IMG/VR virus record: IMGVR_UViG_3300012153_000001
Coordinates: 1,190 to 65,189 of that record
Reading direction: 5' to 3' (one strand)
DNA: 64,000 nucleotides
From: a virus
The translations under genes were made by a program, and so were the position numbers. The notes below the pieces were generated by a model. It was not told the DNA's origin, made no database searches, and saw only the letters and a list, made by a program, of their open reading frames with translations. Of this stretch, positions 11,847-63,714 are shown one piece after another; position 1 is the stretch's first letter; each line of letters starts with the position of its first letter.

Positions 11847-11920
11847 CGTAAGTAAACGGAGCAAGCGTAGTATTGGGCGGAGGTCCCAACGGACAGCCCA
11901 CGAAAAGGGGAAACTCATTA

Positions 11921-13372
11921 ATGGCGAAACTTAACGTGGTAATTCCGGCAGTAGAGGTAACGGTGGATGGCGTGACTTATCGCAAGGTTGACCGCAAGGC
12001 GCAAGCGGGTGATATCGTTAAGGCGCTAAATAATGGTGACGACATCGATATGGGCGCATTCTACGCGGTGTACGTAAGCTCAGACCGTGAACTCGTGTTT
12101 GCGGATGATAACGGTGATGAGAGAGCGTATCAACTCAGAGAGAACTCGGATAAGTACGAAGTCTACGCGCCAATCTCCGAACCAGCCGCGGACACTATCA
12201 CGTTCGAAGGCGCAACATGGCGCAAAGTCGACCGCGATGTCCGCGAAGGCGATGCGATTAAGTTTACGGGTAAGGGACGCCGCAGCTACTTGACTGGTGC
12301 GGAGCTGTACGTTGTTGACCGCGTAGATTCGTGCGACGATCCGCAAATTACGGATGACGACGGAGATGATTACGACGCGGGCAGCGCTGATTACGAAGTC
12401 TACGAGAAGGTTGCGGAAGAGAAGACGCAAGTCACTACACCTCAGTATCGCGAGGTTAAGCGGAAAGCTGACGTAGGTGAGCGGATTAAGATCGTCGATA
12501 GGCTCGTATGGGAGACACGTTATGCGAACGGAGATACCTTCGTTGTAGCAGAGGACGCGGCTGGTGGTGACGTCGTTATTAGAACGGAGAATTTCCCGAG
12601 AGTATGCGTAGTTTATTCCGAATACGTCGTACTCGAACCGGTAACCGCGGAGCCTGCGAAGAAAGCGGAGCCAGAACGCCTGGCCGTCGGAGATTATGCG
12701 CGGGTTGTTGACGGAGAGAAAATAAACTCGGGAGCTCGCGTTGGAGACATCGTTGAGATACTCGTAGATGATAAGAGCACGGTGCCGTATAAAGTACGTA
12801 CAATTAGCGGCTATAGGGTCGGAGACGAAAACTGGGCGCTTCCTTCCGCATTTGTCCGCGCAACAGACGAAGAGGTGGCGGCCGCTAAAGATCCGCGCAG
12901 TAAATTCGAGATCGGAGACTACGTAAAGGTTGCGGTCGAATACTGCGAGCATAAGGTAGGCGACGTATTGAAGATTACGAACACAGCCAGCAGACACGAT
13001 TTCTACGTAACTAACGTGGCTACTAATCGTCTTGGGTGCATCGACGCAGACAAACTCGTTAAACTCACCGCAGCCGAAATCGCGGAGATCGAACGCAAGC
13101 AAGCGGAAGAAGCCGCTAAACGCGCTGAGGAAGCCCGCTGGAACGCGATCGGCCGTAAGGTGAACGAGTATAAACGCGGAGATTTGGTAAAGGTACTCGG
13201 AACTCTCGGCGGAGAAACCGAAGTAGGCGACATCGTGGAGGTATACGAAGGAGACGGAACTGACTCACCGATGATTTACGGTAATGATGGTTCAACATAC
13301 TACGCCACGGTTGAGCTAATCGTTCCGGTAGAGCAACGTTTCGACCGCGTAGAGGAGGTGGACGCCGCATAA
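11921..13372 (+). CDS. repeat protein, paralog family member P1
   Basis: SD AAAGGGGA lies before ATG 11921. Three units of type (Y/W)R(K/E)V(D/K)RKAxxG(D/E)xIK...YEVY/YVVLEP, followed by three xGDxVKV-type units. Confidence 0.6.
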   Translation: MAKLNVVIPAVEVTVDGVTYRKVDRKAQAGDIVKALNNGDDIDMGAFYAVYVSSDRELVFADDNGDERAYQLRENSDKYEVYAPISEPAADTITFEGATWRKVDRDVREGDAIKFTGKGRRSYLTGAELYVVDRVDSCDDPQITDDDGDDYDAGSADYEVYEKVAEEKTQVTTPQYREVKRKADVGERIKIVDRLVWETRYANGDTFVVAEDAAGGDVVIRTENFPRVCVVYSEYVVLEPVTAEPAKKAEPERLAVGDYARVVDGEKINSGARVGDIVEILVDDKSTVPYKVRTISGYRVGDENWALPSAFVRATDEEVAAAKDPRSKFEIGDYVKVAVEYCEHKVGDVLKITNTASRHDFYVTNVATNRLGCIDADKLVKLTAAEIAEIERKQAEEAAKRAEEARWNAIGRKVNEYKRGDLVKVLGTLGGETEVGDIVEVYEGDGTDSPMIYGNDGSTYYATVELIVPVEQRFDRVEEVDAA

Positions 13373-13381
13373 GCGCTAACC

Positions 13382-15244
13382 GTGCGGACTACAACGAAAG
13401 GAGTGAGCGCTATATCACCGAAACTAACGCTAAACTTACGGCCGCCAGCGGATGACGAAGCGGCGGAACGGGTGGCAGACGCAGCTAAACGGAAGAAGGC
13501 GGCGCAGGAGACGGACGAAGAGGCGATCGACCGCGTACTGCGGATGTCATTAACGGATAAGCAACGCGAGGCAATCGAAGGCTTACGGCAGGTATACGGA
13601 TCGGGCGAAACAGGCAATCGTCCGACTCTCCGTACCTCTGGCGGCCAAGTAACGAAAGAAGACGTAATCCGCGCGGCTGAACAACTGCAACGACAAAGGC
13701 AGACGGATCAGCGCGCGGAGAAAGTTGCGGAGACATTGCGGTCAAAGCCGGATAATTTCCACATCGTAACGGATGACGCGGAGTTACCTGCGTTCGTCGA
13801 GCGTATTCGCGAAGAGTGTCGGCGCCAAATGGCGGAGTGGCCGGATAGGTGGGCGATACTTGGCGTAAAATCGCTGACCGCGAATGACTTCGAGGGAACC
13901 GGAGTAGACACGTACATTGACGTATCAATCGGATATTCCGTATGGCTTCCGTTACTGGACGAAGGGTACTACCTTCCGTATGGGCACGTTGACATGCGCG
14001 GAGAATCGGGCTTCGACTTCCTGGACGATATGAGCGCACATAAATCAACCGACCGCCAGCTCACGCGTTCAAAAGTTCTCGCGGCAATCACGCCTTATCT
14101 ATCGCAACCAGCGCATGGCAAATCGTTTCATATGGGATCTGCGCGCTATGACTTACACGTTGCGATTAAAGACGGCTACGAGATTCACGGCTGCGTATGG
14201 GATTCGCTGGACGCGATGAACTCGTTAAATGAGCACGAGGAGTACTTCGGTCTCAAACCGTTAACCGCTAAATACGGACGTTACTTCGGAATTGACGGTC
14301 CGGTCTATACGTTTGAAGACATGTTTGGAAACCGTTCGCCAGCTCCGTTCAGCATCGAACTCGTCGGAATCTACGCGATCAAGGACGTACTGTACGGTTG
14401 GCGCCTTACGGAATGGCAATTCGAACAGATGCGCGTTACGCCGTCCGCAGAGAAGCCGGGCAAGCTTCTCGAATGTTATGCGCAAATTGACTCGAAGCTT
14501 CCGGAGACAGACGTATTCTTGGCGCGGTCCGGCTTCTGCGTTGATATTGACGGACTCGCCGCGTTAGAAACCGAGTTCGAACCGCTACTTGAGAAGGCTC
14601 GTGCTGACGTATTCGAAGCGTACGAAATTGACGACGCGTTTGTACGTAAGATGGACCGCACGATCAACGCGGCTAAGGTTACGGACTGGATCGATAAGCA
14701 ACGTAAGAGGATCGCACGGAATGCGGAAGCTCAGGAGAAACAACTCGCGATAATCTCGGAATGTAAAGCCGCAGGGAAAACGCAGCTCAAGAAATATACG
14801 AACGCGGTCGAAAGGCTTGCGCAATTGAAGGCGGAGAATTTAGCGCCAGCCGACGAAGAGCACGCGCCACTTAACGTAACGGAGTTTTCGATAACGAACG
14901 GGAATCACCTTGCGTATCTGATTTACGATCACCTCGGAATACGCGACCGCACCGGACAGTTCAAGCGCGGCAAGAACCGCAGTACGGCTGCTGACGTCAT
15001 GGAGGCGTATTACGAAGAGGAAGAAGCGCTCAAGCCGTTGGCGACCGTGGCTGCGTACGAGAAGCTGCTAACAACGTATATCCAACCGATGTTAGGGAGC
15101 GCGGGCAAATCGTCCATTATCGAAGTGGATGGGCGCGTACACTCGGAGTTCAAAGCGGGAGGGACCGCAACAGGGCGGTACAGTTCGTCAGGATACAGCG
15201 GAAGACCGATCGATATATTACGCGAATTTGAAACGGAGGAATGA
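13382..15244 (+). CDS. polA: family A DNA polymerase, N-terminal part (3'-5' exonuclease + N-terminal pol domain)
   Basis: Exo I-like NDFEGTGVD. The ORF ends ...GGTATGRYSSSGYSGRPIDILREFETEE*, right after the PolA TGRxSS motif. The start is uncertain (GTG 13382, or ATA 13412 after an SD). Confidence 0.85.
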   Translation: MRTTTKGVSAISPKLTLNLRPPADDEAAERVADAAKRKKAAQETDEEAIDRVLRMSLTDKQREAIEGLRQVYGSGETGNRPTLRTSGGQVTKEDVIRAAEQLQRQRQTDQRAEKVAETLRSKPDNFHIVTDDAELPAFVERIREECRRQMAEWPDRWAILGVKSLTANDFEGTGVDTYIDVSIGYSVWLPLLDEGYYLPYGHVDMRGESGFDFLDDMSAHKSTDRQLTRSKVLAAITPYLSQPAHGKSFHMGSARYDLHVAIKDGYEIHGCVWDSLDAMNSLNEHEEYFGLKPLTAKYGRYFGIDGPVYTFEDMFGNRSPAPFSIELVGIYAIKDVLYGWRLTEWQFEQMRVTPSAEKPGKLLECYAQIDSKLPETDVFLARSGFCVDIDGLAALETEFEPLLEKARADVFEAYEIDDAFVRKMDRTINAAKVTDWIDKQRKRIARNAEAQEKQLAIISECKAAGKTQLKKYTNAVERLAQLKAENLAPADEEHAPLNVTEFSITNGNHLAYLIYDHLGIRDRTGQFKRGKNRSTAADVMEAYYEEEEALKPLATVAAYEKLLTTYIQPMLGSAGKSSIIEVDGRVHSEFKAGGTATGRYSSSGYSGRPIDILREFETEE

Positions 15245-15248
15245 GTAG

Positions 15249-15578
15249 ATGACTAAATATCTTTTGCCTCTCATTGACGGTGGTATCGTGAAAATTGAGA
15301 CTGATTCGGAGTACTCGCCAGGCTGCGAGACGTGTGACTACGGAAGTTTATATATAAACGATTTCAACGTTCTATTGAGTACTGGAAATATATACGTCAG
15401 AGCAGAAAATATGTACGAGTACGCATTGTCCGAGGGCTACTTAATGGAGCTCATTCTTCCGAATACAGACCTTATTAAAGGGATGACAGAGCGTGGGTTC
15501 TTTGAGTGGGTTGAGGAGAGCCTGCGAGGTAAGTTTGGAAGTCTAATCGATATTTGCGAGTTCAACGCTAATGCCTAA
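15249..15578 (+). CDS. hypothetical 109-aa protein inserted inside polA
   Basis: SD GGAGG lies 10 nt upstream. AT-richer than the flanks. CETCDYG is the only motif seen. No homing-endonuclease motif recognised. Confidence 0.6.
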   Translation: MTKYLLPLIDGGIVKIETDSEYSPGCETCDYGSLYINDFNVLLSTGNIYVRAENMYEYALSEGYLMELILPNTDLIKGMTERGFFEWVEESLRGKFGSLIDICEFNANA

Positions 15579-16659
15579 CATAACTGACGCTAATTACCAC
15601 GCTATTGTCCGTAAGCTTATCGCAGACAACCGCAAGGTAAGACGCGGCCTCAACGCCCAGAATTTACCATCTAAAGGCGCAGGCAGCCGCGTCCGTAATC
15701 AATTCGTTCCTCGCGAAGGCTTCACGTTTGTCGGCGCCGACCTCGGGCAGATAGAGCCTCGAATAATGGCGCACATCATGTATACGAAATATAACGACAA
15801 CTCTATGCGTCAAATCTTCGTAGACGGCGTCGACCTCTATACGACTATGGCGATGATGACGTTCGACTTGCCAGAAGAATACTGCGTCGACAAAGCGTAC
15901 GATCCGACCGGCAAGTTCAAGCCGCGCGTAATGATGAAGACAGGCCAGCTCGCGGTGTCATACGATCAATCCGTTAAGTCTTTCGCGAAGAAGATGCAAG
16001 TTACCGACGACGTTGCGCAGATGTTCTTCGAAAACTTCGACCAAACGTTTCCGTCGTTTAAAACGATGGTGGCCGATATTCGCGACTTCATGCGTCAGCA
16101 CGGTTATGTAGAAACACTTTTCGGCCGCAAACGTCGCTTCCCGGATTATAAACGCGTAGCTGCGTCAGCATCGAAGAATGAGCAACGGTTGATCCGCTTG
16201 TACACTGAACGGAAATCACTCCGCCGCCTGACGCCGACCGATGCAGAACAACGAAGGATCACCGCACTGCAAGAGGAGATAGGCAAGCTCGCAGAGGATC
16301 GCGGTAATGTCGGCTACTGGGAACGTGCTGCCTTCAACGCGGTTATCCAAGGAACTGGCGCGGACATCCTCAAGCGCATTGGTATCCGTATGGCACAGAT
16401 ATGTCGAGAACGCGGATGGGAGTTTAACGCGTCAATACATGATGAAGTTATCGTAAGCATTCCGGACGATCAAATGACGCCGGAAACAATCGCGCTTATT
16501 AACGAAGTGATGACGAAGACTTCCGAGTTAAGCGTGCCGCTTACGACGGACATTGCGATACAAAAGCGCTGGATGATGGAGTATTCAGCGGACGAATGGG
16601 ACTACGCGAATAACCGGCCGTTGCCGGAGTTTGCGAATAAATACGGGGAGGCTGCGTAA
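15571..16659 (+). CDS. polA: family A DNA polymerase, C-terminal part (motifs A, B, C)
   Basis: LNAQNLPSKG (the PNLQNIP equivalent), motif A VGADLGQIEPRIMAH, motif B KTGQLAVSY, motif C SIHDEVIV. The ATG overlaps the stop of the inserted ORF and has no SD. Confidence 0.85.
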   Translation: MPNITDANYHAIVRKLIADNRKVRRGLNAQNLPSKGAGSRVRNQFVPREGFTFVGADLGQIEPRIMAHIMYTKYNDNSMRQIFVDGVDLYTTMAMMTFDLPEEYCVDKAYDPTGKFKPRVMMKTGQLAVSYDQSVKSFAKKMQVTDDVAQMFFENFDQTFPSFKTMVADIRDFMRQHGYVETLFGRKRRFPDYKRVAASASKNEQRLIRLYTERKSLRRLTPTDAEQRRITALQEEIGKLAEDRGNVGYWERAAFNAVIQGTGADILKRIGIRMAQICRERGWEFNASIHDEVIVSIPDDQMTPETIALINEVMTKTSELSVPLTTDIAIQKRWMMEYSADEWDYANNRPLPEFANKYGEAA

Positions 16660-17559
16660 ATGGAACAGCGTAAATATACGAGTATTGTACGAATGGGACA
16701 TCGCGATACTGTAGGAGTCGTTAAGGAAGGCGACTATATCACGGTATACGAAAAGTTGGACGGAGCTAACGCGTCGTTTTCGCTAAGAGATGACGGAGAA
16801 GTCCTCGCGTTCTCACGTAACACGCAGCTCTCTCCGGAAAATAACCTACGTGGATTCTACGAGTTTACTCGCGGTATTAATCCTTCCGCACTAATGCCAG
16901 ACACTATTTACTACGGAGAATGGCTCGTTAAGCACAAAGTCGATTACGGAGACAAAGCGGCAACGTTCTATCTGTTCGATATCTACAGCACTATCGACGA
17001 AGATTACGCGCCAACTGACGTTGTTATCTCCGAGGCCGCATGGTTGGGACTCGCAATTGCACCGATCCTATACGCAGGCCCTTACGTATCATTCGAACAC
17101 CTGCAATCGCTGGTTGGGCGGTCTTCATACGCGGTAAACGCAGCAGGCGGCGAAGGCATCGTCGTCAAGAACGTTAATTTCCGGGATCAGTACGGTAAGC
17201 AAACGTTTATGAAGCTCGTTAGCGAAGAATTCCGCGAGATGCAGCCGCAGAAGGCTCCGCGTGATCCTAACGCTGTGGAAACGGTCGAGACGGCGTTCGT
17301 CAAAACGTACCTGACCGAGGCGCGCGTCGATAAGCTATTACGCAAACTCGTTGATGAGGCGATTATTCCGGAAGCGTTCGGACTAGAGGATATGGGCGTC
17401 ATCCTGCGTGAGCTTGGCGGCCGCGTATACGATGACCTATTGAAAGAGGAGAGCGCGGACTTACCAGCGGACTTTGACGAGAAGGGATTGCGCAAGGCGA
17501 TCGGAAGGGTATTACCGGTACTTGTACGCGAAATTATTAACGGAGAGGTGGCTGCGTAA
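16660..17559 (+). CDS. ATP-dependent RNA ligase (Rnl2-like)
   Basis: Nucleotidyltransferase motifs I EKLDGAN, III YYGEW, IV EGIVVK and V FMKLVSEEF, arranged as in T4 Rnl2. Confidence 0.7.
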   Translation: MEQRKYTSIVRMGHRDTVGVVKEGDYITVYEKLDGANASFSLRDDGEVLAFSRNTQLSPENNLRGFYEFTRGINPSALMPDTIYYGEWLVKHKVDYGDKAATFYLFDIYSTIDEDYAPTDVVISEAAWLGLAIAPILYAGPYVSFEHLQSLVGRSSYAVNAAGGEGIVVKNVNFRDQYGKQTFMKLVSEEFREMQPQKAPRDPNAVETVETAFVKTYLTEARVDKLLRKLVDEAIIPEAFGLEDMGVILRELGGRVYDDLLKEESADLPADFDEKGLRKAIGRVLPVLVREIINGEVAA

Positions 17560-19959: not shown

Positions 19960-20114
19960 GCGAACTAGCCGCACGCCTCGCCGAACACCAGCGCCAGGAA
20001 ATCGCAGCCCTCGAACGGTCCGTCGCAGTATACCGAGGGCTTGCGGAGAAGTATGAACGTAGGCTCGCCGAAGCCCGCGCAATATACGAAAGGAGCGAGC
20101 GCGAAGAATGCTAG
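19956..20114 (+). CDS. small coiled-coil protein (52 aa)
   Basis: ATGA overlap with the previous stop, and the ORF overlaps the nrdI start. Short. Confidence 0.35.
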   Translation: MSELAARLAEHQRQEIAALERSVAVYRGLAEKYERRLAEARAIYERSEREEC

Positions 20115-20470
20115 TCGTCTACGCATCACGTACGGGAAATGTCGGCCTATTCGCGCGGCGTCTCCCTTATCCTACAGCTAAACTTACGGAGGATCTACGC
20201 GTAACTGAGCCGTTTATCCTCGTGACATATACGGATAAGATCGGAGAGGTTCCGTCCAAGACACGTGCTTTCCTCGCATATAACAACGAATACTTACGCG
20301 GCGTGGCAGCGTCCGGCAACCGTAATTTCGGACCAGCTTACGCACTCGCCGCGGATCAAATAGCGAAACAATACGGAGTGCCGATCGTTTGCAAGTTCGA
20401 ACTGGCGGGCACGCCTACCGACATACAAAAATTCACCGAAGGAGTGGACGCGCTTGTCAAGTACCTATAA
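20108..20470 (+). CDS. nrdI: flavodoxin-like NrdI
   Basis: N-terminal MLVVYASRTGNV. Size and position directly upstream of nrdE fit NrdI. Confidence 0.85.
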   Translation: MLVVYASRTGNVGLFARRLPYPTAKLTEDLRVTEPFILVTYTDKIGEVPSKTRAFLAYNNEYLRGVAASGNRNFGPAYALAADQIAKQYGVPIVCKFELAGTPTDIQKFTEGVDALVKYL

Positions 20471-22550
20471 ATATATCGAACTCAATAACGAGGTTACCGT
20501 AATGAAGGACGGTTTTTACCAACTCGAAAAGGATACGGAGGCCGTCGACGAGTTCATGCGCTTCATCCGCGATAATAAGATGCGGTTTGACTCCGTAATG
20601 GCGCGCGTTCATTATATGGTCGACAACGGGTATTACTATCCGGAAGTCCTGGCGCAATATACTCCGGAGCAAATTACGGATGTTCACCGCATGGCTGACG
20701 ACGCTGGCTTGCGATTCGCTTCGTACATGGCCGCGTTCAAATATTATACGGATTACGCGCTTAAGACTCGCGACAAGAAAACGTACCTGGAATCGCCAGA
20801 GGAACGTTACGCAATCATCGCGTTATACCTGGCTCAAGGTAATTACGAACAAGCGCGGGAACTTATGTGGGGCTACCTAAACGGAGTTCAACCGGCCACG
20901 CCTACGTTCCTTAACGCAGGCAAAGCGAGACGCGGCGAGATGGTATCGTGTTTCCTTACGGAGCTTGACGACAGCCTTAACGCAATTGGCCACGCACATA
21001 ATACCGCGATGCAACTTTCGAAGATTGGCGGAGGTGTGGCGCTGAATCTATCGAAACTGCGCGGACGTGGCGAGGCGATTAAAGAGGAGGAAGGCGTAGC
21101 AAAAGGCATCCTTCCGGTCGCCAAACAACTAGAAATGGCGTTCTCATACGCGGACCAAATGGGACAGCGTAAAGGTAGCGGGGCGGTCTATTACAACATC
21201 TTCGGATGGGACGTGATGGAGCTGCTTGACGCGAAGAAGATTAACGCGGATGAACGGTCGCGCCTTAAAACGTTGTCTATCGGACTTATCGTTCCGTCCA
21301 AGTTTATCGAGCTTGCGGAGACTAACGAGCCGTATTACGTATTCGCGCCATACACCGTCTTCAAAGCGTATGGAACGCACTTGGACGATATGGATATTAG
21401 CGCGATGTATGACGAGTTGGTTGCGAATCCGGTCATTAAGAAGCGCGAGTTAAATGCGCGTGATATGTTGACGAAGATTGCGACAACGCAACTTGAATCC
21501 GGATATCCGTATCTCATGTTCAAGGACAACGCGAATGACGGACATGCGCTGAAAGGCGTCGGTCAGGTGAAGATGTCAAACCTCTGCACGGAAATTTTCC
21601 AGTTGATGGAAACTAATATCATCAACGATTACGGTGAGCCTGACGAAATCGGCCTCGATATCTCGTGTAACCTCGCGTCACTCAATATCGTTACTGCTAT
21701 GGATTCCGGAGATTTACGCCGCGCTGTTCATTCCGCAATGGACTCGCTGACCGCAGTATCCGATATGACTGCGATCGCCAATGCACCAGGCGTCCGCAAA
21801 GCTAACGATTTAATGCATAGCGTCGGCCTCGGCGCAATGAACCTACACGGTTTCCTTATGAAGAACCGCATATCGTATCAATCCGAGTTGGGACGTGAGT
21901 TTGCGGACGCCTTCTTCGCCGCGATCAACTATTACTCGCTGGAACGTTCGATGCAAATCGCTAAGGAGCGCGGAGAGTCATTCTACGGATTCGACCGTTC
22001 TGATTACGCAAGCGGCGCGTACTTTACGCAATATATCGAAAATGATTTCCGTCCGAAGTTCGAAAAAGTAGCGGATTTGTTCGCAGCTTCGGGAATCGTT
22101 CTTCCGGGACCTGACGAATGGGAACGTTTGGCCGCGGAAGTTAAAGAATACGGATTGTGGCACGCGTATAGACTTGCGATTGCACCTACGCAAAGTATTT
22201 CGTACGTTCAGAACGCGACGAGCTCCGTATTGCCGATTTCTGACGTAATGGAGACGCGGACCTACGGAAACTCTACGACGTACTATCCGGCTCCGTTCCT
22301 GGCGCGTGACAATATGATTTCGTATACCAGCGCGTTCAATATGGACCAGCGGAAAATACTCGAAATGGTTGCGACAATTCAGCGCCACGTTGACCAAGGG
22401 ATATCAACGATACTCTACGTAGACTCGAAAACGCCAACTAATGAACTCGTCCGCTATTATCTATACGCGCACAAACTCGGCCTTAAGTCGCTGTACTATA
22501 CGCGGAATAAACTACTGTCCGTAGCTGAATGCACATCTTGCGCTGTCTAA
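20454..22550 (+). CDS. nrdE: class Ib ribonucleotide reductase alpha subunit
   Basis: N-terminal YIELNNEV, NLCTEI active-site region, and a C-terminal CxxC tail (ECTSCAV). 698 aa. Confidence 0.92.
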   Translation: MSSTYKYIELNNEVTVMKDGFYQLEKDTEAVDEFMRFIRDNKMRFDSVMARVHYMVDNGYYYPEVLAQYTPEQITDVHRMADDAGLRFASYMAAFKYYTDYALKTRDKKTYLESPEERYAIIALYLAQGNYEQARELMWGYLNGVQPATPTFLNAGKARRGEMVSCFLTELDDSLNAIGHAHNTAMQLSKIGGGVALNLSKLRGRGEAIKEEEGVAKGILPVAKQLEMAFSYADQMGQRKGSGAVYYNIFGWDVMELLDAKKINADERSRLKTLSIGLIVPSKFIELAETNEPYYVFAPYTVFKAYGTHLDDMDISAMYDELVANPVIKKRELNARDMLTKIATTQLESGYPYLMFKDNANDGHALKGVGQVKMSNLCTEIFQLMETNIINDYGEPDEIGLDISCNLASLNIVTAMDSGDLRRAVHSAMDSLTAVSDMTAIANAPGVRKANDLMHSVGLGAMNLHGFLMKNRISYQSELGREFADAFFAAINYYSLERSMQIAKERGESFYGFDRSDYASGAYFTQYIENDFRPKFEKVADLFAASGIVLPGPDEWERLAAEVKEYGLWHAYRLAIAPTQSISYVQNATSSVLPISDVMETRTYGNSTTYYPAPFLARDNMISYTSAFNMDQRKILEMVATIQRHVDQGISTILYVDSKTPTNELVRYYLYAHKLGLKSLYYTRNKLLSVAECTSCAV

Positions 22551-22575
22551 ATACGAGAGGAGACTGATATCTTAA

Positions 22576-23538
22576 ATGACGAACATTATCCGCGCTGTGA
22601 ATTGGAACCGACCTGACGACGACTACTCCGAGGATTTCCTCGACCAGAACTTTATGCAAATATGGCGCGAGCACGAAATCCCGCTTGATGACGATAAGAT
22701 GGCGTGGCTTGCGCTGAGTGATACGGAGCGTGACGTGTATAAGAAGGTGCTTGGCGGCCTTACATTTCTAGATACGGAGCAAGGTTCCGAAGGGATGCCG
22801 CTTATTATGCAGCACGTCGAGAGCGCGCAGAAGAAGGCGGTCCTATCGTTCATGGGCATGATGGAGCATATCCACGCGAAGTCTTATAGCGCAATCTTCG
22901 CAACGCTCACCTCTACGGAAGAGTCCGACCGCGTATTCGAATGGACCGTAGCCAATCCGTTCCTACGGCGCAAGGGCGAAATCATTAGCGGATATTACCG
23001 TTCCATTACGTCGCCTGAGCGCTTATACATGGCGATGGTTGCGTCGGTATTCCTGGAATCCGCGCTGTTCTATTCCGGATTCTACTATCCGCTATTACTC
23101 GCAGGACGCGGCAAGATGACGGCCAGCGGCGAGATTATCGATTTGATCATGCGCGATGAGGCGGTGCACGGTCAGTACATTGGAACACTAGCACGTGAGG
23201 TGTACGCTGATCTTCCGCAAGAGTCGCAGGAGGCGCTTGACCGCGAAGTCGCCGTATTGCTGCGCCGGCTTTACGATAATGAGGCGGGGTATACCGTTGA
23301 TTTGTACGCGCCAATCGGACTTGAGGAGGACGTGCTGCGGTTCCTGCGTTACAACTTTAATCGTGCGCTTATGAATCTCGGACGGCCTACGCATTTTCCC
23401 GACGAAGATATCAATCCGATCGTACTCAACGGGATTAATACCGCGACGAAGATACACGATTTCTTCTCGAAGAAAGGTAACGGATATCAGAAGGCGGTCA
23501 ATATCGTACCGCTTACGGATGCTGATTTCGCGGTATAG
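22576..23538 (+). CDS. nrdF: class Ib ribonucleotide reductase beta subunit
   Basis: Di-metal/tyrosyl radical motifs EHIHAKSYS and RDEAVHG. 320 aa. Confidence 0.92.
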   Translation: MTNIIRAVNWNRPDDDYSEDFLDQNFMQIWREHEIPLDDDKMAWLALSDTERDVYKKVLGGLTFLDTEQGSEGMPLIMQHVESAQKKAVLSFMGMMEHIHAKSYSAIFATLTSTEESDRVFEWTVANPFLRRKGEIISGYYRSITSPERLYMAMVASVFLESALFYSGFYYPLLLAGRGKMTASGEIIDLIMRDEAVHGQYIGTLAREVYADLPQESQEALDREVAVLLRRLYDNEAGYTVDLYAPIGLEEDVLRFLRYNFNRALMNLGRPTHFPDEDINPIVLNGINTATKIHDFFSKKGNGYQKAVNIVPLTDADFAV

Positions 23539-23668: not shown

Positions 23669-24547
23669 ATGTCAAACGTTAATCAAACGTATCGAGAAGT
23701 CCAACGCAAAGCCAACGCAGGTGAGCGCATCAAGATCGTAGCCGCCGCGGTCACTGGCGGTAGTTACCACAACGGTGACGAGCTCGTAGTTAGTGCCGTC
23801 CAGCCGTCTGGAGTACTCGCGACACTTGCGGACGGATATCGCGCAGGTATCTGGCACCGCGAATACGTAGTCCTCGAACCTATCGTAGCTCCCGCGCCAT
23901 CAAACGTTAACCTCCCGGACCTCTTCGCACAATTCATCCGGGACAATGCGCCGGCCGTACGCAGCTACTTGGCGGAGGTTGATCCGGTTGATAGCGCGGA
24001 GATCAACGAACCGGCCCCGCTGATACGCGCCAAGGTTATCGAAATGGCTCGCGAAAGGGTTACGGAGTTGGAGCGGCTCGGTTCTGATCCTAACGCGGAA
24101 TTAGCGCAAGGTCCGTTCAAAACGAAGTTCTATAACGTAGAATTTCACGTTAACCGCGATAAACGGACAGTTACCGCATTAGTGCGTATGGGGCGGAGAC
24201 GGAGCGGAGATAAACCAGCCGCAGTAGGCATCGCTAAGGCCGCGCCCGACGACGTATTTAACGCAGACATCGGCAAGGCAATCGCGGCTGAACGAGCGCT
24301 CGGTCTGACGCTGACGGATGCGTTTGTGAATGCGCCGAAGCCGGAGAAGGCGGTACCTGGCGTCGTTATCCGTAAGATAAACGGAGCCCATATCGGTACA
24401 ACTCGCGTCATTGAACGGACAATATTGGACGGTACTAGATACGAATTTACCAACGGGTATAACTCGGAGATTCGTAACTGCGCGATTATCGACGACACCG
24501 ACGCAGATTACACGGAGTCGGCCGCAAAGGACGGTGAAGCCGCGTGA
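23669..24547 (+). CDS. repeat protein, paralog family member P2
   Basis: N-terminal unit YREVQRKANAGERIKIV...REYVVLEP. The C-terminal domain VEFHVNRDKRTVTALVR...APDDVFNADIGKAIAAERAL is shared with P3. Confidence 0.6.
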   Translation: MSNVNQTYREVQRKANAGERIKIVAAAVTGGSYHNGDELVVSAVQPSGVLATLADGYRAGIWHREYVVLEPIVAPAPSNVNLPDLFAQFIRDNAPAVRSYLAEVDPVDSAEINEPAPLIRAKVIEMARERVTELERLGSDPNAELAQGPFKTKFYNVEFHVNRDKRTVTALVRMGRRRSGDKPAAVGIAKAAPDDVFNADIGKAIAAERALGLTLTDAFVNAPKPEKAVPGVVIRKINGAHIGTTRVIERTILDGTRYEFTNGYNSEIRNCAIIDDTDADYTESAAKDGEAA

Positions 24548-27522: not shown

Positions 27523-27996
27523 ATCTCGCTAAGTATAATCGCGCAAATCATCGTAGCTTTATCCGTAGGACTAAGCGCAGTTAACGGAGTCCCACCGAAC
27601 GAACCGATGCAACCACCCGCAGTCTCTTCGCAGGTAACAGGCAAACTTGCGAAAGAACAGGCGGAGATTAAGGCGCATGACGACGCGTGGCAAACGTACG
27701 AAGCGACTGCTTATACGGCGTTTTGCTCCGAAGGATGTACGGGAATCACCGCGACCGGCCTCGACGTCAGCGAAACGACTACGTATAAAGGGCGCACGGT
27801 TATCGCAACTGATCCGAAGGAGATCCCGCTTGGCACGCGGATAACAATACGGACTGCTGACGGTGGGGAAATCGCAGGCATATCGCAAGACCGCGGATCG
27901 GCGATTAAAGGCCGCAAGCTTGACGTATTAGTTGCGTCGGAAAAGGAAGCGCGCCAGTTCGGACGCCAGAAAGTACGCGTTAAAATCGAAAACTAA
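27523..27996 (+). CDS. secreted/anchored 3D-domain (MltA/RlpA-like) cell-wall protein, probable ATC start
   Basis: 3D-domain pattern YEATAYT..GITATG..IATDP..IPLGT..DRGSAIKG..LDV. GAAGGAGG (27508-27515), 7 nt, then ATC 27523. This start adds the hydrophobic N-terminus SLSIIAQIIVALSVGLSAV. Confidence 0.6.
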   Translation: MSLSIIAQIIVALSVGLSAVNGVPPNEPMQPPAVSSQVTGKLAKEQAEIKAHDDAWQTYEATAYTAFCSEGCTGITATGLDVSETTTYKGRTVIATDPKEIPLGTRITIRTADGGEIAGISQDRGSAIKGRKLDVLVASEKEARQFGRQKVRVKIEN

Positions 27997-28016: not shown

Positions 28017-29255
28017 ATGAACGCAAACATTACCGTATTGAAAGACGAAAGCCTCGGCGGAGTTGAGCGCGAGTACCACGAGGTTAAGCGGAAGGCGAGC
28101 GTTGGTGAACGTATTAAGATCGTTGACGCCTCTTCATTCAGCGATTATGGAAACGGAGATACGTTTATCGTGGAACGCGATGACTGTGACGGGGATATTT
28201 TCATTACGGATAATGTCGGAGATGAGGAGGGTGTGTTTGATTACGAATACGTAACGCTCGAACCGTCCGATATCGTCCGCATCAACTCCGCCCGCTTCCG
28301 CATGGTCGATCGGAAAGCCGCGGTGGGCGAGCGCGTGATTATCGTAAATACTGTCGATTTAAACGGGGATGGCTACGAGAATGGTAATGTATTTGACGTA
28401 ACGGAACTTTGGGAAGCGGGAGTTGACGTTGATCACAGCGTAACGCTCTATCATCGAGAATACCACGTACTCGAACCAGTAAAAAGCACGCCAATCTCCG
28501 AACCTCTCTCCGCCAAGCCCGCGCCTGACCAAGCCGCCGAAATCATCGCGAAGTTATCGACGCGAGTAACTGCGCTTGAGGAACGTGTGGCGGCGTTGGA
28601 AACTGCGCCTATTAACCCGCGCTTATCTGACGTAGGAGTTAGAGCGCAGGAAGCTACGGACGCATTCGCTAGAGCTACGAAAAGGACATCCGCCACAGTA
28701 GCGGAAGTTACCGCTAACCTGGCGCAACGGGCGAAGGAAGCGCGCCAGAGAAAGCGCGATGACATCGTTAAGCGTGCGAAGGAGGACTTACACGCGCTGT
28801 CTATCGAAACTGGAAATTACGTTGTTAAGGATTCGCCCACATGTCGAGGTAATATATGTGAGGTGGAGTTCATTGTCAACCGAGATAAGCGTAAAGTTAC
28901 CGCTATCCTGCGCGGAGTAAACTCTCGAAAAGTACGCGCCGTTGGTCGGGCGGTCTGCAATCCGGATGACGTGTTTAACGTACATCTAGGGCGCGCAATT
29001 TCGCTAAGAAAAGCGCTAAAACAACCGATTCCGGAGGAGTACGTTAACGCGCCGCAGCCTACGGAGGTTCGCGTTGGGGATGTCGTTAAGTGGACGTATA
29101 AATATGGCGGGGAGATTACGGAGGTTGTAACGATTACACGTATTGACGGTGATCAATACCGATTCTCAGACGGGTGCTGGGACGATAGAGATACGCTAAC
29201 TGTGCTCGACGACTCCCGTACAGACAGCGCAGAGCCGCGGAAGGAGGTGGCGTAA
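28017..29255 (+). CDS. repeat protein, paralog family member P3
   Basis: Two units (YHEVKRKASVGERIKIV...YEYVTLEP and FRMVDRKAAVGERVIIV...REYHVLEP), a coiled coil, then the C-terminal domain VEFIVNRDKRKVTAILRG...NPDDVFNVHLGRAISLRKAL. Confidence 0.6.
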   Translation: MNANITVLKDESLGGVEREYHEVKRKASVGERIKIVDASSFSDYGNGDTFIVERDDCDGDIFITDNVGDEEGVFDYEYVTLEPSDIVRINSARFRMVDRKAAVGERVIIVNTVDLNGDGYENGNVFDVTELWEAGVDVDHSVTLYHREYHVLEPVKSTPISEPLSAKPAPDQAAEIIAKLSTRVTALEERVAALETAPINPRLSDVGVRAQEATDAFARATKRTSATVAEVTANLAQRAKEARQRKRDDIVKRAKEDLHALSIETGNYVVKDSPTCRGNICEVEFIVNRDKRKVTAILRGVNSRKVRAVGRAVCNPDDVFNVHLGRAISLRKALKQPIPEEYVNAPQPTEVRVGDVVKWTYKYGGEITEVVTITRIDGDQYRFSDGCWDDRDTLTVLDDSRTDSAEPRKEVA

Positions 29256-34161: not shown

Positions 34162-35022
34162 ATGTTCATTAGTCCGATGTTACTCGAAAAGGCGGACGCC
34201 CCGTTCTCGGATTCGCGCTTCATATTCGAGCCGAAGATCGACGGCCACCGCCTTATATTTTCGCAAATTGACGGAGAAGTCCGTTTATATACGCGTCACA
34301 ACAACGATTGCACTCGCCAGTATCCCGAAATAGCTGTCGCCCGATTCGGCCACGACGTTATCCTTGACGGTGAAATCGCGTGCGTTAACCCGGCAAATGG
34401 AGTCTCGGACTTTGAGGCGGTAATGTCCCGGTTCTCCGCGCGTAAAGCCGATAAGATACGCAATTTGACCGTAACTAACCCGGCCACATTCGCCGTATTC
34501 GACGTGCTGCGGTATAAAGACGCCGATGTCCGGAGCATACCGCTAATTGAGCGCAAGGCCATTCTCGCGGGGCTGACGATGCCTAACGCAAGCGTGGGCG
34601 TTGTCCCTTACGTAGAGGGCGCCGGCGAAGCGCTTTTTACGCAAATAGAAGGGCGCGAAATGGAAGGCGTAGTCGCCAAGCGGAAGGACAGTGCGTACGT
34701 AAGCCGCAGGTCCGCTGACTGGCGCAAGATTATTAACTGGACGTATGCCGACGTGTTCATAACGGGATACCGTAAAGGTGAGTTCGGTTGGCTTGCGAGT
34801 GTTGCGAATGAGCGCGGTAACGTCCGTCCCGCCGGCATTATCGAGTTTGGCGCGTCACCAACGCATAAGAAGGCGTTCTATGGCGTGAGTAAAGCGATCG
34901 TATCCGGTGAGGACAGCGAGTTTGTATACGTTGAGCCGTGGATTAGGGCTCGCGTTAAGATACGGAACTGGACCAAAGCGGGAATGTTGCGGACTCCGGT
35001 ATTCTGCGAGTTTATAGTTTAG
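34162..35022 (+). CDS. ATP-dependent DNA ligase (compact LigD-ligase-domain type)
   Basis: Motif I EPKIDGHR, motif III FDVL, motif IV EGVVAK, motif V DWRKI. A TATAAT at 34139-34144 lies upstream. Confidence 0.8.
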   Translation: MFISPMLLEKADAPFSDSRFIFEPKIDGHRLIFSQIDGEVRLYTRHNNDCTRQYPEIAVARFGHDVILDGEIACVNPANGVSDFEAVMSRFSARKADKIRNLTVTNPATFAVFDVLRYKDADVRSIPLIERKAILAGLTMPNASVGVVPYVEGAGEALFTQIEGREMEGVVAKRKDSAYVSRRSADWRKIINWTYADVFITGYRKGEFGWLASVANERGNVRPAGIIEFGASPTHKKAFYGVSKAIVSGEDSEFVYVEPWIRARVKIRNWTKAGMLRTPVFCEFIV

Positions 35023-62682: not shown

Positions 62683-63714
62683 TTACTTAAACATTTTTCT
62701 GCCGCGTTTCTTCTCGTTACCTTTATCGATCAAACTCGAGATAGGACTCGCCTTGTCGTGCTGCTCGCTCAGATCCGTTCCTGTAAATTTAGCATATACC
62801 TGTGTCATATTAAGCGAGGTGTGACCTAAAATGCGCGCCAGACTCAACGCATCGCCGTTTTGGCGTAGAAACTTAACCGCAAAGTAATGCCGGAAAGTAT
62901 GCGGGGATACTCTCGGCCCTGTTACGCCAACGCGCTTTGCGTAAAGTTTTAGCATCTTCGCGAAGGTATCTCCGAAATAACGTTCGCCGAACTGAGTGAG
63001 CCATAGCGGGTCGTCTTCGCTTACGTCCATATACGAAATTAAGTTCTCCAGCTCACGGGAAGTAAGCGGGGAAATAGGGACCACGCGAGTCATATTCGTT
63101 TTTGAGGTCTCTGCGCGGACTATGATTTGTCGTGTCTTAAAGTTAACGTCTGACACGCGCAGACTCGTCAGTTCTTTAATACGCAGGCCAGTGTCACAGA
63201 GGAGAAGCATCATACAATAATCGCGTCGGCCCGTATAGACCCTTCGGTTAGGCGCGCCGAGGAGCTTGACCACTTCTTCATCCGTGAAAATGTCGAAGGT
63301 ATCTTTTGCCTCCGCTTGGTATTTTACAGCCTCCATCGGATTGTACGATATGACTCTTTCTTCTATTAAGTAATTAAAGAAGATGCGCATATTACGTATG
63401 ACGTTGTTTATCGTCCGAGGCGAGAGTCCTTTTGCACCGTTTGGACTCGTCGGATGATCGTCCCATCGTACCTTCCCGAACGAAAGATATTCGATGTACT
63501 CACGTAGGATCTCCGTATTAATTTCGTCATACTCGCGCTCATTATACCACTTCTCGAATTGATTCAAGACCTGCGCATATGCGCTAATTGTTTTTACTGC
63601 GCGGCGTTCTCTGCGCTTAGAATCGAGAAACTGCGCGATGCGATCTCCTAACGCAAGCTTAAGCGGCTTACCCTCTTTTGATACAAACGTAAACTTCGGT
63701 GTTTTCTGCGCCAT
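62683..63714 (-). CDS. int: tyrosine recombinase / phage integrase
   Basis: SD AAAGGAGG upstream. N-terminal SAM-like domain. Catalytic region: TGLRIKEL, HTFRHYFA, LGHTSLNMTQVY. Confidence 0.9.
   Translation of the reverse strand: MAQKTPKFTFVSKEGKPLKLALGDRIAQFLDSKRRERRAVKTISAYAQVLNQFEKWYNEREYDEINTEILREYIEYLSFGKVRWDDHPTSPNGAKGLSPRTINNVIRNMRIFFNYLIEERVISYNPMEAVKYQAEAKDTFDIFTDEEVVKLLGAPNRRVYTGRRDYCMMLLLCDTGLRIKELTSLRVSDVNFKTRQIIVRAETSKTNMTRVVPISPLTSRELENLISYMDVSEDDPLWLTQFGERYFGDTFAKMLKLYAKRVGVTGPRVSPHTFRHYFAVKFLRQNGDALSLARILGHTSLNMTQVYAKFTGTDLSEQHDKASPISSLIDKGNEKKRGRKMFK

Follow-up and report, generated by a model that had tools for sequence, protein, structure and literature searches.

Two sets of proteins from the Bacillus phage SPO1 are among the closest described counterparts of the proteins that we discuss here. 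One is Acb4, the founding member of the family PF13876, which is a tetrameric sponge for the cyclic dinucleotides of CBASS (the cyclic oligonucleotide-based antiphage signaling system) and has a fold like that of a dsRBD (a domain for binding to double-stranded RNA) (bioRxiv 10.1101/2024.12.30.630793). Acb4 domains frequently occur as fusions with further anti-defense domains (bioRxiv 10.1101/2025.07.12.664507). The other is the set of proteins encoded by genes 38-40, which are early, non-essential genes that are implicated in shutting down the host's synthesis of DNA, RNA, and protein, and whose toxicity is synergistic (PMC6873191). We studied three proteins, P1, P2, and P3, from another phage (IMG/VR virus record IMGVR_UViG_3300012153_000001). 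We analyzed 64,000 nucleotides of that record (positions 1,190 to 65,189), which we call the window; it covers most of a ~65.1-kb contig. P1, P2, and P3 share a repeat, unit A, which has probable distant relatives in the barrels of gp39 and gp40. P2 and P3 also share a C-terminal domain that is related to Acb4.

Three paralogous proteins

P1, P2, and P3 were originally predicted, from inspection of the sequence, to be a three-member family of paralogous repeat proteins. All three open reading frames (ORFs) are present, on the + strand. In an all-versus-all BLASTP comparison of the 86 proteins of the window, only P1, P2, and P3 were linked to one another, so the family is genuine. P1 matches P3 with E = 5e-11 (51% identity over 66 amino acids) and P2 with E = 7e-11, and P2 and P3 match over their whole length (E = 9e-26). 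We also scanned the six-frame translation of the window with hidden Markov models (HMMs). With the HMM for unit A, P1 had three hits, P2 had one, P3 had two, and there were none elsewhere, which agrees with the original count. The HMM for the C-terminal domain hit P2 (E = 5e-32) and P3 (E = 1e-35) only, which confirms that this domain is common to those two proteins. Neither BLASTP nor the six-frame HMM scans of the window revealed a fourth, diverged member. The parts of the three proteins are as follows (aa, amino acids; pI, isoelectric point).

11921..13372, + strand: P1, 483 aa, with six barrels (three of unit A and three of B type), one long helix, and a PVEQRFDR tail that is conserved at the C terminus
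11954..12178, + strand: P1 unit A copy 1 (aa 12-86), diverged, YRKVDRKAQAGDIVKAL ... YEVYAPI (HMM domain E = 5e-13)
12194..12418, + strand: P1 unit A copy 2 (aa 92-166), diverged, WRKVDRDVREGDAIKF ... YEVYEKV (HMM E = 6e-13)
12437..12649, + strand: P1 unit A copy 3 (aa 173-243), canonical, YREVKRKADVGERIKIV ... EYVVLEP (HMM E = 6e-22)
12668..13336, + strand: P1 small barrels of B type, B1 (aa 250-316), B2 (aa 326-384), and B3 (aa 414-472), from AlphaFold, HMM, phrog_15694, and phrog_10201
23669..24547, + strand: P2, 292 aa, with one unit A, a helical linker, an Acb4/Rv2632c-like domain, and a tail barrel
23681..23890, + strand: P2 unit A (aa 5-74; HMM E = 1e-21)
24116..24346, + strand: P2 C-terminal Acb4/Rv2632c-like domain (aa 150-226), pI 10 (PF08962 with E = 5e-4 and 20.5 bits; domain HMM)
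24347..24526, + strand: P2 tail barrel (aa 227-286), from BLASTP; weak in the six-frame HMM scan
28017..29255, + strand: P3, 412 aa, with two copies of unit A, a coiled coil, an Acb4/Rv2632c-like domain, and a tail barrel
28062..28487, + strand: P3 unit A copies 1 (aa 16-86; HMM E = 1e-23) and 2 (aa 90-157; HMM E = 9e-21)
28488..28802, + strand: P3 helical or coiled-coil segment (helices 169-196, 210-222, and 228-261)
28803..29051, + strand: P3 Acb4/Rv2632c-like domain (aa 263-345), pI 9.7, beta-beta-beta-alpha-alpha, with invariant G310, F320, N321, and G325
29052..29222, + strand: P3 conserved linker NAPQPTEVRVGD (81% identity across homologs) and tail barrel (aa 346-402)

We modeled P3 and P1 with AlphaFold, using alignments of 53 and 41 sequences, respectively. 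(The mean predicted local distance difference test score, or pLDDT, was 86.0 for P3 and 85.7 for P1.) In the model of P1, six small beta barrels are strung together, along with one long helix. In the model of P3, two barrels are followed by ~90 residues of long helices, then by a beta-beta-beta-alpha-alpha domain, and lastly by a small barrel. As modeled, unit A folds into a small beta barrel of the SH3-like type, with about 70 residues. The long helices at residues 169-261 of P3 correspond to the coiled coil that was originally predicted. The last helix of this segment (RDxIVxRAKxD) is nearly invariant and is part of the C-terminal domain.

P1 was also predicted to have three shorter units of the GDYVKV type, and both their mutual similarity and the AlphaFold barrels support this. 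B1 and B2 match each other with E-values of 1e-5 to 1e-6, with a weaker relationship for B3. The helix at residues 384-409 sits between B2 and B3. A small barrel that resembles these B units ends P2 and P3. In Pfam, residues 256-293 of P1 hit DUF1918 (E = 0.017). We placed the start of P1 at the ATG at 11921, not at the TTG at 11873, because its homologs begin with MAKLNVV....

Constant and hypervariable parts of unit A

Across 40-52 homologs, unit A divides into a constant frame that is 60-83% identical and a hypervariable core that is 17-25% identical, with insertions and deletions. The frame comprises an N-terminal hairpin, the motif Y-R-E-V-K-R-K-A-x-x-G-E-R-I-K-I-V (in which R-K-A-x-x-G-E-R is a basic loop), and the closing strand E-Y-V-V-L-E-P. 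The core is the other half of the barrel, and it varies in both sequence and length. The six copies in the window spell the conserved motifs with different synonymous codons, which implies selection at the protein level instead of recent DNA exchange. Because the synonymous positions are free among the six copies, we ruled out recent recombination, cassette shuffling, or a diversity-generating mechanism as explanations for the frame motifs.

The repeats were originally described as SH3/KOW-like, and this fits the structural comparisons. The best Foldseek matches of the P1 model were the multi-KOW region of Spt5 (E = 6e-8), the repeats of Mind bomb, the Tudor domains of SETDB1, and the SH3-like tandem domains of KIN17; the TSA domain of TraI was also among the SH3-like matches of the barrels. 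Spt5 KOW1-7, the Mib repeats of Mind bomb, and the tandem Tudor or SH3-like domains of SETDB1 and KIN17 share with P1 a beads-on-a-string arrangement of small barrels with 5-6 strands. However, unit A has no detectable sequence relationship to any of these arrays and lacks a KOW or Tudor signature. The layout with a constant frame and a hypervariable core is also specific to the unit-A family.

Nucleic-acid binding by the repeats had been suggested as well. The barrels are strongly acidic (P1 has a net charge of -34 and a pI of 4.6), which argues against plain nucleic-acid binding, and we disfavor this idea. The acidic barrels contrast with the C-terminal domain, which is basic (pI 9.7-10).

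Unit A is widespread. A HMMER search found it in 2159 representative clusters (defined at 50% identity) with E ≤ 1e-3, including 881 with E ≤ 1e-10, and a single protein can have up to 12 copies. When we scanned 45 members singly against Pfam, no family matched unit A at a meaningful E-value. Among 76 family proteins, we found no consistent match of the barrels to a curated SH3-clan family, just sporadic hits to SH3_15 or SH3_2 in three proteins. Pfam also gave no informative or fused enzymatic domain in these 76 proteins, so guilt by fusion is uninformative for the barrels. The PHROG families that were matched are all of unknown function, and phmmer searches of P1, P3, and a homolog (P0265) against the sequences in PDB yielded nothing meaningful. 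Until now, the sequences in the window were known just as hypothetical proteins or as PHROGs of unknown function.

The C-terminal domain of P2 and P3 is related to Acb4

In the original prediction, the family was not recognized. This still holds for unit A, which has no Pfam family, but the C-terminal domain of P2 and P3 can be placed in a superfamily with the dsRBD fold that includes Acb4 (PF13876) and the Rv2632c-like proteins (PF08962). When 24 sequences of the domain were scanned singly, 20 matched PF08962 (best E = 3.8e-5) and 5 matched PF13876 (best E = 0.003). A homolog with 54% identity (P0265) passes the gathering score of PF08962, with 28.2 bits, and another homolog (P0280) reaches 17.9 bits for PF13876.

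The structural comparison gave a similar picture. Residues 283-345 of the P3 model, which have pLDDT of 90-96, form a dsRBD-like fold that can be superposed on the structure of Acb4 (Phage_gp49_66; PDB:9E4W); the two share the same alpha-beta-beta-beta-alpha arrangement. Using Foldseek, the P3 model matched Acb4 in complex with cGAMP (9e4w_B) with a probability of 0.99 over 84 columns, with a template modeling score of 0.48 (relative to the target) and a root-mean-square deviation of 4.6. This match is moderate because the query was the full-length multidomain model. The probability for Rv2632c (2fgg) was 0.92.

We then compared sequence profiles. Against PDB, the only match of the domain profile was Acb4 (E = 0.95). 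Against an alignment of the Acb4 family, which we assembled from nine proteins in phage genomes, hhalign gave a probability of 84.8% (P = 6.6e-6), or 94.0% (P = 1.4e-7) if the domain profile was enriched to 52 sequences. The probability for an unrelated profile, as a negative control, was 1.4%. In this register, invariant or nearly invariant residues of the domain, which are the most conserved of the family, correspond to ligand or core residues of Acb4: K291 to K36, F320 to F62, N321 to N63, I/L324 to I66, and G325 to G67. V56 of Acb4 aligns with C314. (We took the roles of the Acb4 residues from bioRxiv 10.1101/2024.12.30.630793.) Acb4 and the domain of P2 and P3 share the motif K...G....FN..IGR..AL..AL. 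Like Acb4, whose domains are known in fusions, P2 and P3 are phage-encoded.

The best-scoring Pfam model for the domain is that of the Rv2632c-like proteins (PDB:2FGG), which are relatives of Rv1738. Unlike the multidomain P2 and P3, Rv2632c is a small stand-alone protein from actinobacteria with no established function. To our knowledge, Rv2632c lacks the FN motif.

The region after the shared fold differs from Acb4. Helix 4 is shorter in P2 and P3, and it is followed by a conserved proline-rich linker and the tail barrel, which replace helix 5 of Acb4 (the location of K81). In Bacillus phages, the domain and its tail also exist as stand-alone proteins of 118-142 aa (P0251 and P0256). The dsRNA-binding KR motif is missing from the start of helix 2 of the C-terminal domain (GRAIALRRAL), so we disfavor binding to dsRNA. 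The KR motif is likewise missing from Acb4 (bioRxiv 10.64898/2026.07.21.739742).

Overall, the homology of the C-terminal domain to the Acb4/Rv2632c superfamily is well supported. The domain in P2 and P3 may also have a function like that of Acb4.

Unit A and the SPO1 proteins gp39 and gp40

When we compared the P3 model to predicted viral structures (BFVD) with Foldseek, it matched a "host shutoff protein" of phage Goe2 (A0A217EQE9; E = 6.5e-8 over 358 columns). This protein is the ortholog of gp40 from SPO1. Both gp39 and gp40 have two N-terminal barrels with the motifs A..GD.I/V.. and Y.VL.P, in the same order as in unit A. In gp40, as can be read from its sequence, the barrels are followed by a central coiled coil and a small C-terminal barrel, as in P3. 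gp39 and gp40 are early, non-structural phage proteins.

The sequences of the two proteins show marginal similarity to unit A as well. With a unit-A HMM that was enriched by adding units from Bacillus phages, gp39 scored 15.4 bits (E = 2.8e-4) and gp40 scored 14.5 bits (E = 5.3e-4; both with Z=200). As controls, the highest score was 8.3 bits among 1000 shuffled sequences and 4.5 bits among about 120 real but unrelated proteins. The HMM gave no similarity between unit A and gp38, and we dropped gp38 as a candidate member. Taken together, unit A is probably a distant relative of the barrels in gp39 and gp40. Host takeover was one of the roles that had been suggested for P1, P2, and P3, and the structural and HMM link to gp39 and gp40 gives this suggestion some substance.

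There are differences as well. Unlike P2 and P3, gp39 and gp40 lack an Acb4-like domain. And gp39 and gp40 are encoded in a dedicated host-takeover module (in the operon 38-39-40), while P1, P2, and P3 lie among replication genes.

P1, P2, and P3 in other phages

The three genes do lie at module boundaries, as originally noted: PolA follows P1, NrdF precedes P2, and dNMP (deoxynucleoside monophosphate) kinase follows P3. In the window, P1 directly precedes PolA, and so do its orthologs in the Bacillus subtilis phage 268TH002 (gene 59) and the Paenibacillus larvae phage Heath (HEATH_58), even though they are just ~30-38% identical. At the N terminus, these orthologs retain the MAKL... barrel, and at the C terminus the PVExRFDR peptide; the B barrels and the helix are kept too. 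Similarly, orthologs of P3 are directly upstream of dNMP kinase in the window, in the nearest relative that we examined (L014, a contig of 65.5 kb), and in the P. larvae phage Ash; in 268TH002, the ortholog is one gene away from a kinase. P2 follows NrdF in both the window and L014.

The gene order in L014 is the same as in the window. Relative to L014, P2 is 68% identical and P3 is 52% identical, which makes P3 the most diverged gene of the region. But the dNMP kinase (60%), RuvC (54%), and dUTPase (69%) have diverged too, so the idea that P2 and P3 evolve exceptionally fast is partly supported only. As an aside, the genes for NrdI, NrdE, and NrdF (20108-23538 in the window; L014:827-4257) are 97-98% identical, while the flanking genes are 52-75% identical. 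This mosaic pattern points to a recent exchange of the ribonucleotide reductase cassette.

The original prediction viewed the three genes as parts of one system. They are true paralogs, but P1 belongs to one orthologous group, always upstream of PolA, and P2 and P3 belong to another, with the Acb4-like module; the two groups share just a type of domain.

Elsewhere, the family occurs in the takeover module of SPO1, adjoining RuvC in Lietuvens, and beside a gene with a GatB domain in FADO. Some proteins of Bacillus phages have two A units and a coiled coil but no C-terminal domain (SPbetaL3 gene 159, 268TH002_79, and phi18-2_81). SPbetaL3 gene 159 (L001:7352-8239) is about 2.5 kb upstream of the gene for the anti-Gabija protein Gad1, and the run of hypothetical genes around it may be an anti-defense region. 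The fused form, with both unit A and the C-terminal domain, is found in the window and in the phages Ash, FADO, Lietuvens, and MaeS, and the hosts of phages with the fused form are Paenibacillus larvae, Bacillus, Sporosarcina, and Microcystis. In the Microcystis phage MaeS (a cyanophage; L021:361-1554), unit A, the helices, the C-terminal domain, and the tail barrel are all present, so the fused form crosses bacterial phyla.

The phage and other features of the region

Besides P1, P2, and P3, the window encodes a tyrosine integrase, a DnaB-type helicase, a primase, a split family-A DNA polymerase, an RNA ligase, an RNase T-like exonuclease, RuvC, NrdI, NrdE, NrdF, dUTPase, ThyX, a 3D-domain protein, dNMP kinase, and a C5 methyltransferase. 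The tyrosine integrase (62683-63714, - strand) implies that the phage is temperate. Homologs of P1 and P3 are nearly all from Paenibacillus, either on contigs of ~63-68 kb or within chromosomal contigs of megabase scale, and across this lineage they often occur together on the same contigs. The phage in the window thus belongs to a lineage of temperate Paenibacillus phages. One of the relatives of ~63-68 kb is annotated as a plasmid (JNUCC32). The relatives are found both in chromosomes and as contigs of this size, and some members of the lineage may persist extrachromosomally. A megablast search with 19 kb against a phage collection gave zero nucleotide matches, so this phage has no close sequenced relative in that collection.

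We made several side observations near P1. Two ORFs (13382-15244 and 15571-16659) make up the split family-A polymerase, and an acidic ORF of 109 aa lies between them (15249-15578). The polymerase of Heath is split in the same way, with a 105-aa ORF in between (HEATH_59/60/61), but the two intervening ORFs show no obvious likeness by eye. Just upstream of P1, 11424-11846 has a weak match to a PD-(D/E)XK endonuclease (PF11645, E = 3e-4). In 268TH002, there is an annotated endonuclease two genes upstream of the ortholog of P1, and the gene order is single-stranded DNA-binding protein (SSB), endonuclease, a small ORF, P1, and PolA.

Near P2, a terminator-like hairpin followed by a run of T lies between nrdF and P2 (23561-23583). 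This is a weak match to the consensus only, but it suggests that P2 may begin a separate transcription unit. In a scan for promoters and terminators around P1, P2, and P3, we found fewer sites than in shuffled sequence. Directly upstream of P3 is the 3D-domain (lytic-transglycosylase-like) protein (27607-27996), and 268TH002 (L018) also has a lytic transglycosylase just upstream of its P3-like gene, which is odd for a region of nucleotide metabolism.

Elsewhere in the window, the ORF at 1090-1623 is a protein of the YpsA/SLOG family (PF06908, E = 2e-23). Because nucleotide binding is a property of SLOG domains, this protein may bear on nucleotide signaling or manipulation of the host. The window also has two ligases, one of the RNA-ligase family (PF09414) and one ATP-dependent DNA ligase (PF01068), at the loci 16660-17559 and 34162-35022.

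What might P1, P2, and P3 do?

These paralogs are non-enzymatic, modular proteins, and we infer that they bind other proteins. Our preferred but tentative interpretation is that P1, P2, and P3 are adaptors for host takeover or counter-defense, and that P2 and P3 bind a nucleotide ligand. The arrays of barrels would bind protein targets multivalently, as is presumed for gp39 and gp40 when host synthesis is shut off. In P2 and P3, the helices may oligomerize the Acb4-like domains, which might then capture a nucleotide ligand by binding and sequestering it; the ligand would probably be an immune second messenger that contains adenine. The Acb4-like module is linked rigidly to the small tail barrel.

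A more specific proposal, which we consider unlikely as it stands, is that P2 and P3 are multidomain sponges for nucleotide signals. The Acb4-like domain, oligomerized by the coiled coil, would be tethered to hypervariable SH3-like barrels, and these would dock onto immune or biosynthetic proteins of the host. Barrels of this type would also be the working module of gp39, gp40, and P1 (as a conserved partner of PolA), and together they would form a large family of multivalent phage adaptors (>2000 clusters). A fusion of an Acb4-like domain to an array of SH3-like barrels is not described in the literature that we read. In surveys of Acb4 and of phage proteins with the dsRBD fold, Acb4 is fused to Tad2 or Sequestin, and the phage proteins with a dsRBD fold are single-domain apart from one fusion to RNase III (bioRxiv 10.1101/2025.07.12.664507; bioRxiv 10.64898/2026.07.21.739742).

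Several observations count against the adaptor interpretation. Full-length P2 and P3 have no hit to PF13876 at E ≤ 1 (its cut-off is 27 bits), and for PF08962, P2 scores 20.5 bits and P3 scores 14.5 bits (18.6 bits for the isolated domain), below the cut-off of 25. About half of the ligand contacts of Acb4 are not retained: the guanine-pocket residues F48 and E49 are not conserved, nor are Y57 and T70, and K81 has no alignable counterpart. P2 and P3 are also much larger, at 292 and 412 aa, with N-terminal SH3-like barrels and helices, while Acb4 has ~96 aa. As for the link to SPO1, the hhalign probabilities against the single sequences of gp39 or gp40 are weak (12-20%), and the mechanism of gp39 and gp40 is itself listed as unknown (PMC13401047). 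Finally, the orthologs of P1 and P3 look like core genes, in that they are fixed beside PolA and dNMP kinase in distant Bacillales phages. This is untypical of anti-defense genes, which come and go, and favors a role in replication or nucleotide metabolism.

The main rival explanation is built on that last point. In this scenario, P1, P2, and P3 are scaffolds for the replisome or for the synthesis of dNTPs (deoxynucleoside triphosphates), with barrels that tether PolA, NrdEF, ThyX, and dNMP kinase; P1 would be a polymerase accessory that acts via its PVExRFDR tail, and in P2 and P3, a nucleotide-binding C-terminal domain would serve to sense or channel (d)NTPs. The positions of P1 upstream of PolA at such low identity, of P3 at dNMP kinase, and of P2 after NrdF speak for this scenario, and the conserved acidic peptide at the C terminus of P1 and the joint occurrence of P1 and P3 homologs across the lineage fit it as well. 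However, the synteny may simply reflect inheritance of the whole module, and the family is placed otherwise in SPO1, SPbetaL3, Lietuvens, and FADO. Hypervariable cores and a copy number that ranges from 2 to 12 would be odd for partners of conserved enzymes, and the closest characterized relative of the C-terminal domain is a sponge for an immune signal. We view the scaffold scenario as somewhat unlikely, but as a serious competitor. It is quite improbable, in our view, that the three genes have no common function, with unit A as a generic, mobile structural spacer and each gene acting independently in a different process. It is true that the domains occur in every combination (unit A with a coiled coil, the C-terminal domain with the tail, or all fused), that P1 lacks the C-terminal domain, and that the three genes are dispersed, with no co-regulation shown by the promoter and terminator scan. 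But the frame is 60-83% identical across both paralogs and orthologs while the synonymous sites are free, which points to a specific conserved interaction instead of a passive spacer.

We also considered binding to RNA or the ribosome, with the C-terminal domain and the KOW-like barrels acting on rRNA, mRNA, or RNA polymerase to take over translation or transcription. In structure, Acb4 and Rv2632c/Rv1738 are similar both to dsRBDs and to ribosome hibernation factors (bioRxiv 10.1101/2024.12.30.630793; PMC7856553), the C-terminal domain is basic, the barrels are most similar to the KOW arrays of Spt5, and some homologs are automatically annotated as NusG or L21e. But besides the missing KR motif at the start of helix 2 and the strongly acidic barrels, no KOW match was found in our Pfam scans, and Rv2632c lacks the basic ring that is thought to bind rRNA (PMC7856553). 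This makes a role in RNA binding highly doubtful.

Implications

If the Acb4-like module in P2 and P3 binds an immune nucleotide, then they would be the first sponges that are large and multidomain, as the known ones are single-domain oligomers of ~100 aa. Their sponge domains would also be wired to targeting modules. Unit A itself is a large family that has no entry in Pfam and that has an unusual design, in which the frame is constant while the core is hypervariable. The probable link to unit A gives a structural handle on gp39 and gp40, whose mechanism has been open since 2009. And the placement of P1 before PolA in distant Bacillales phages flags it as a possible polymerase accessory.

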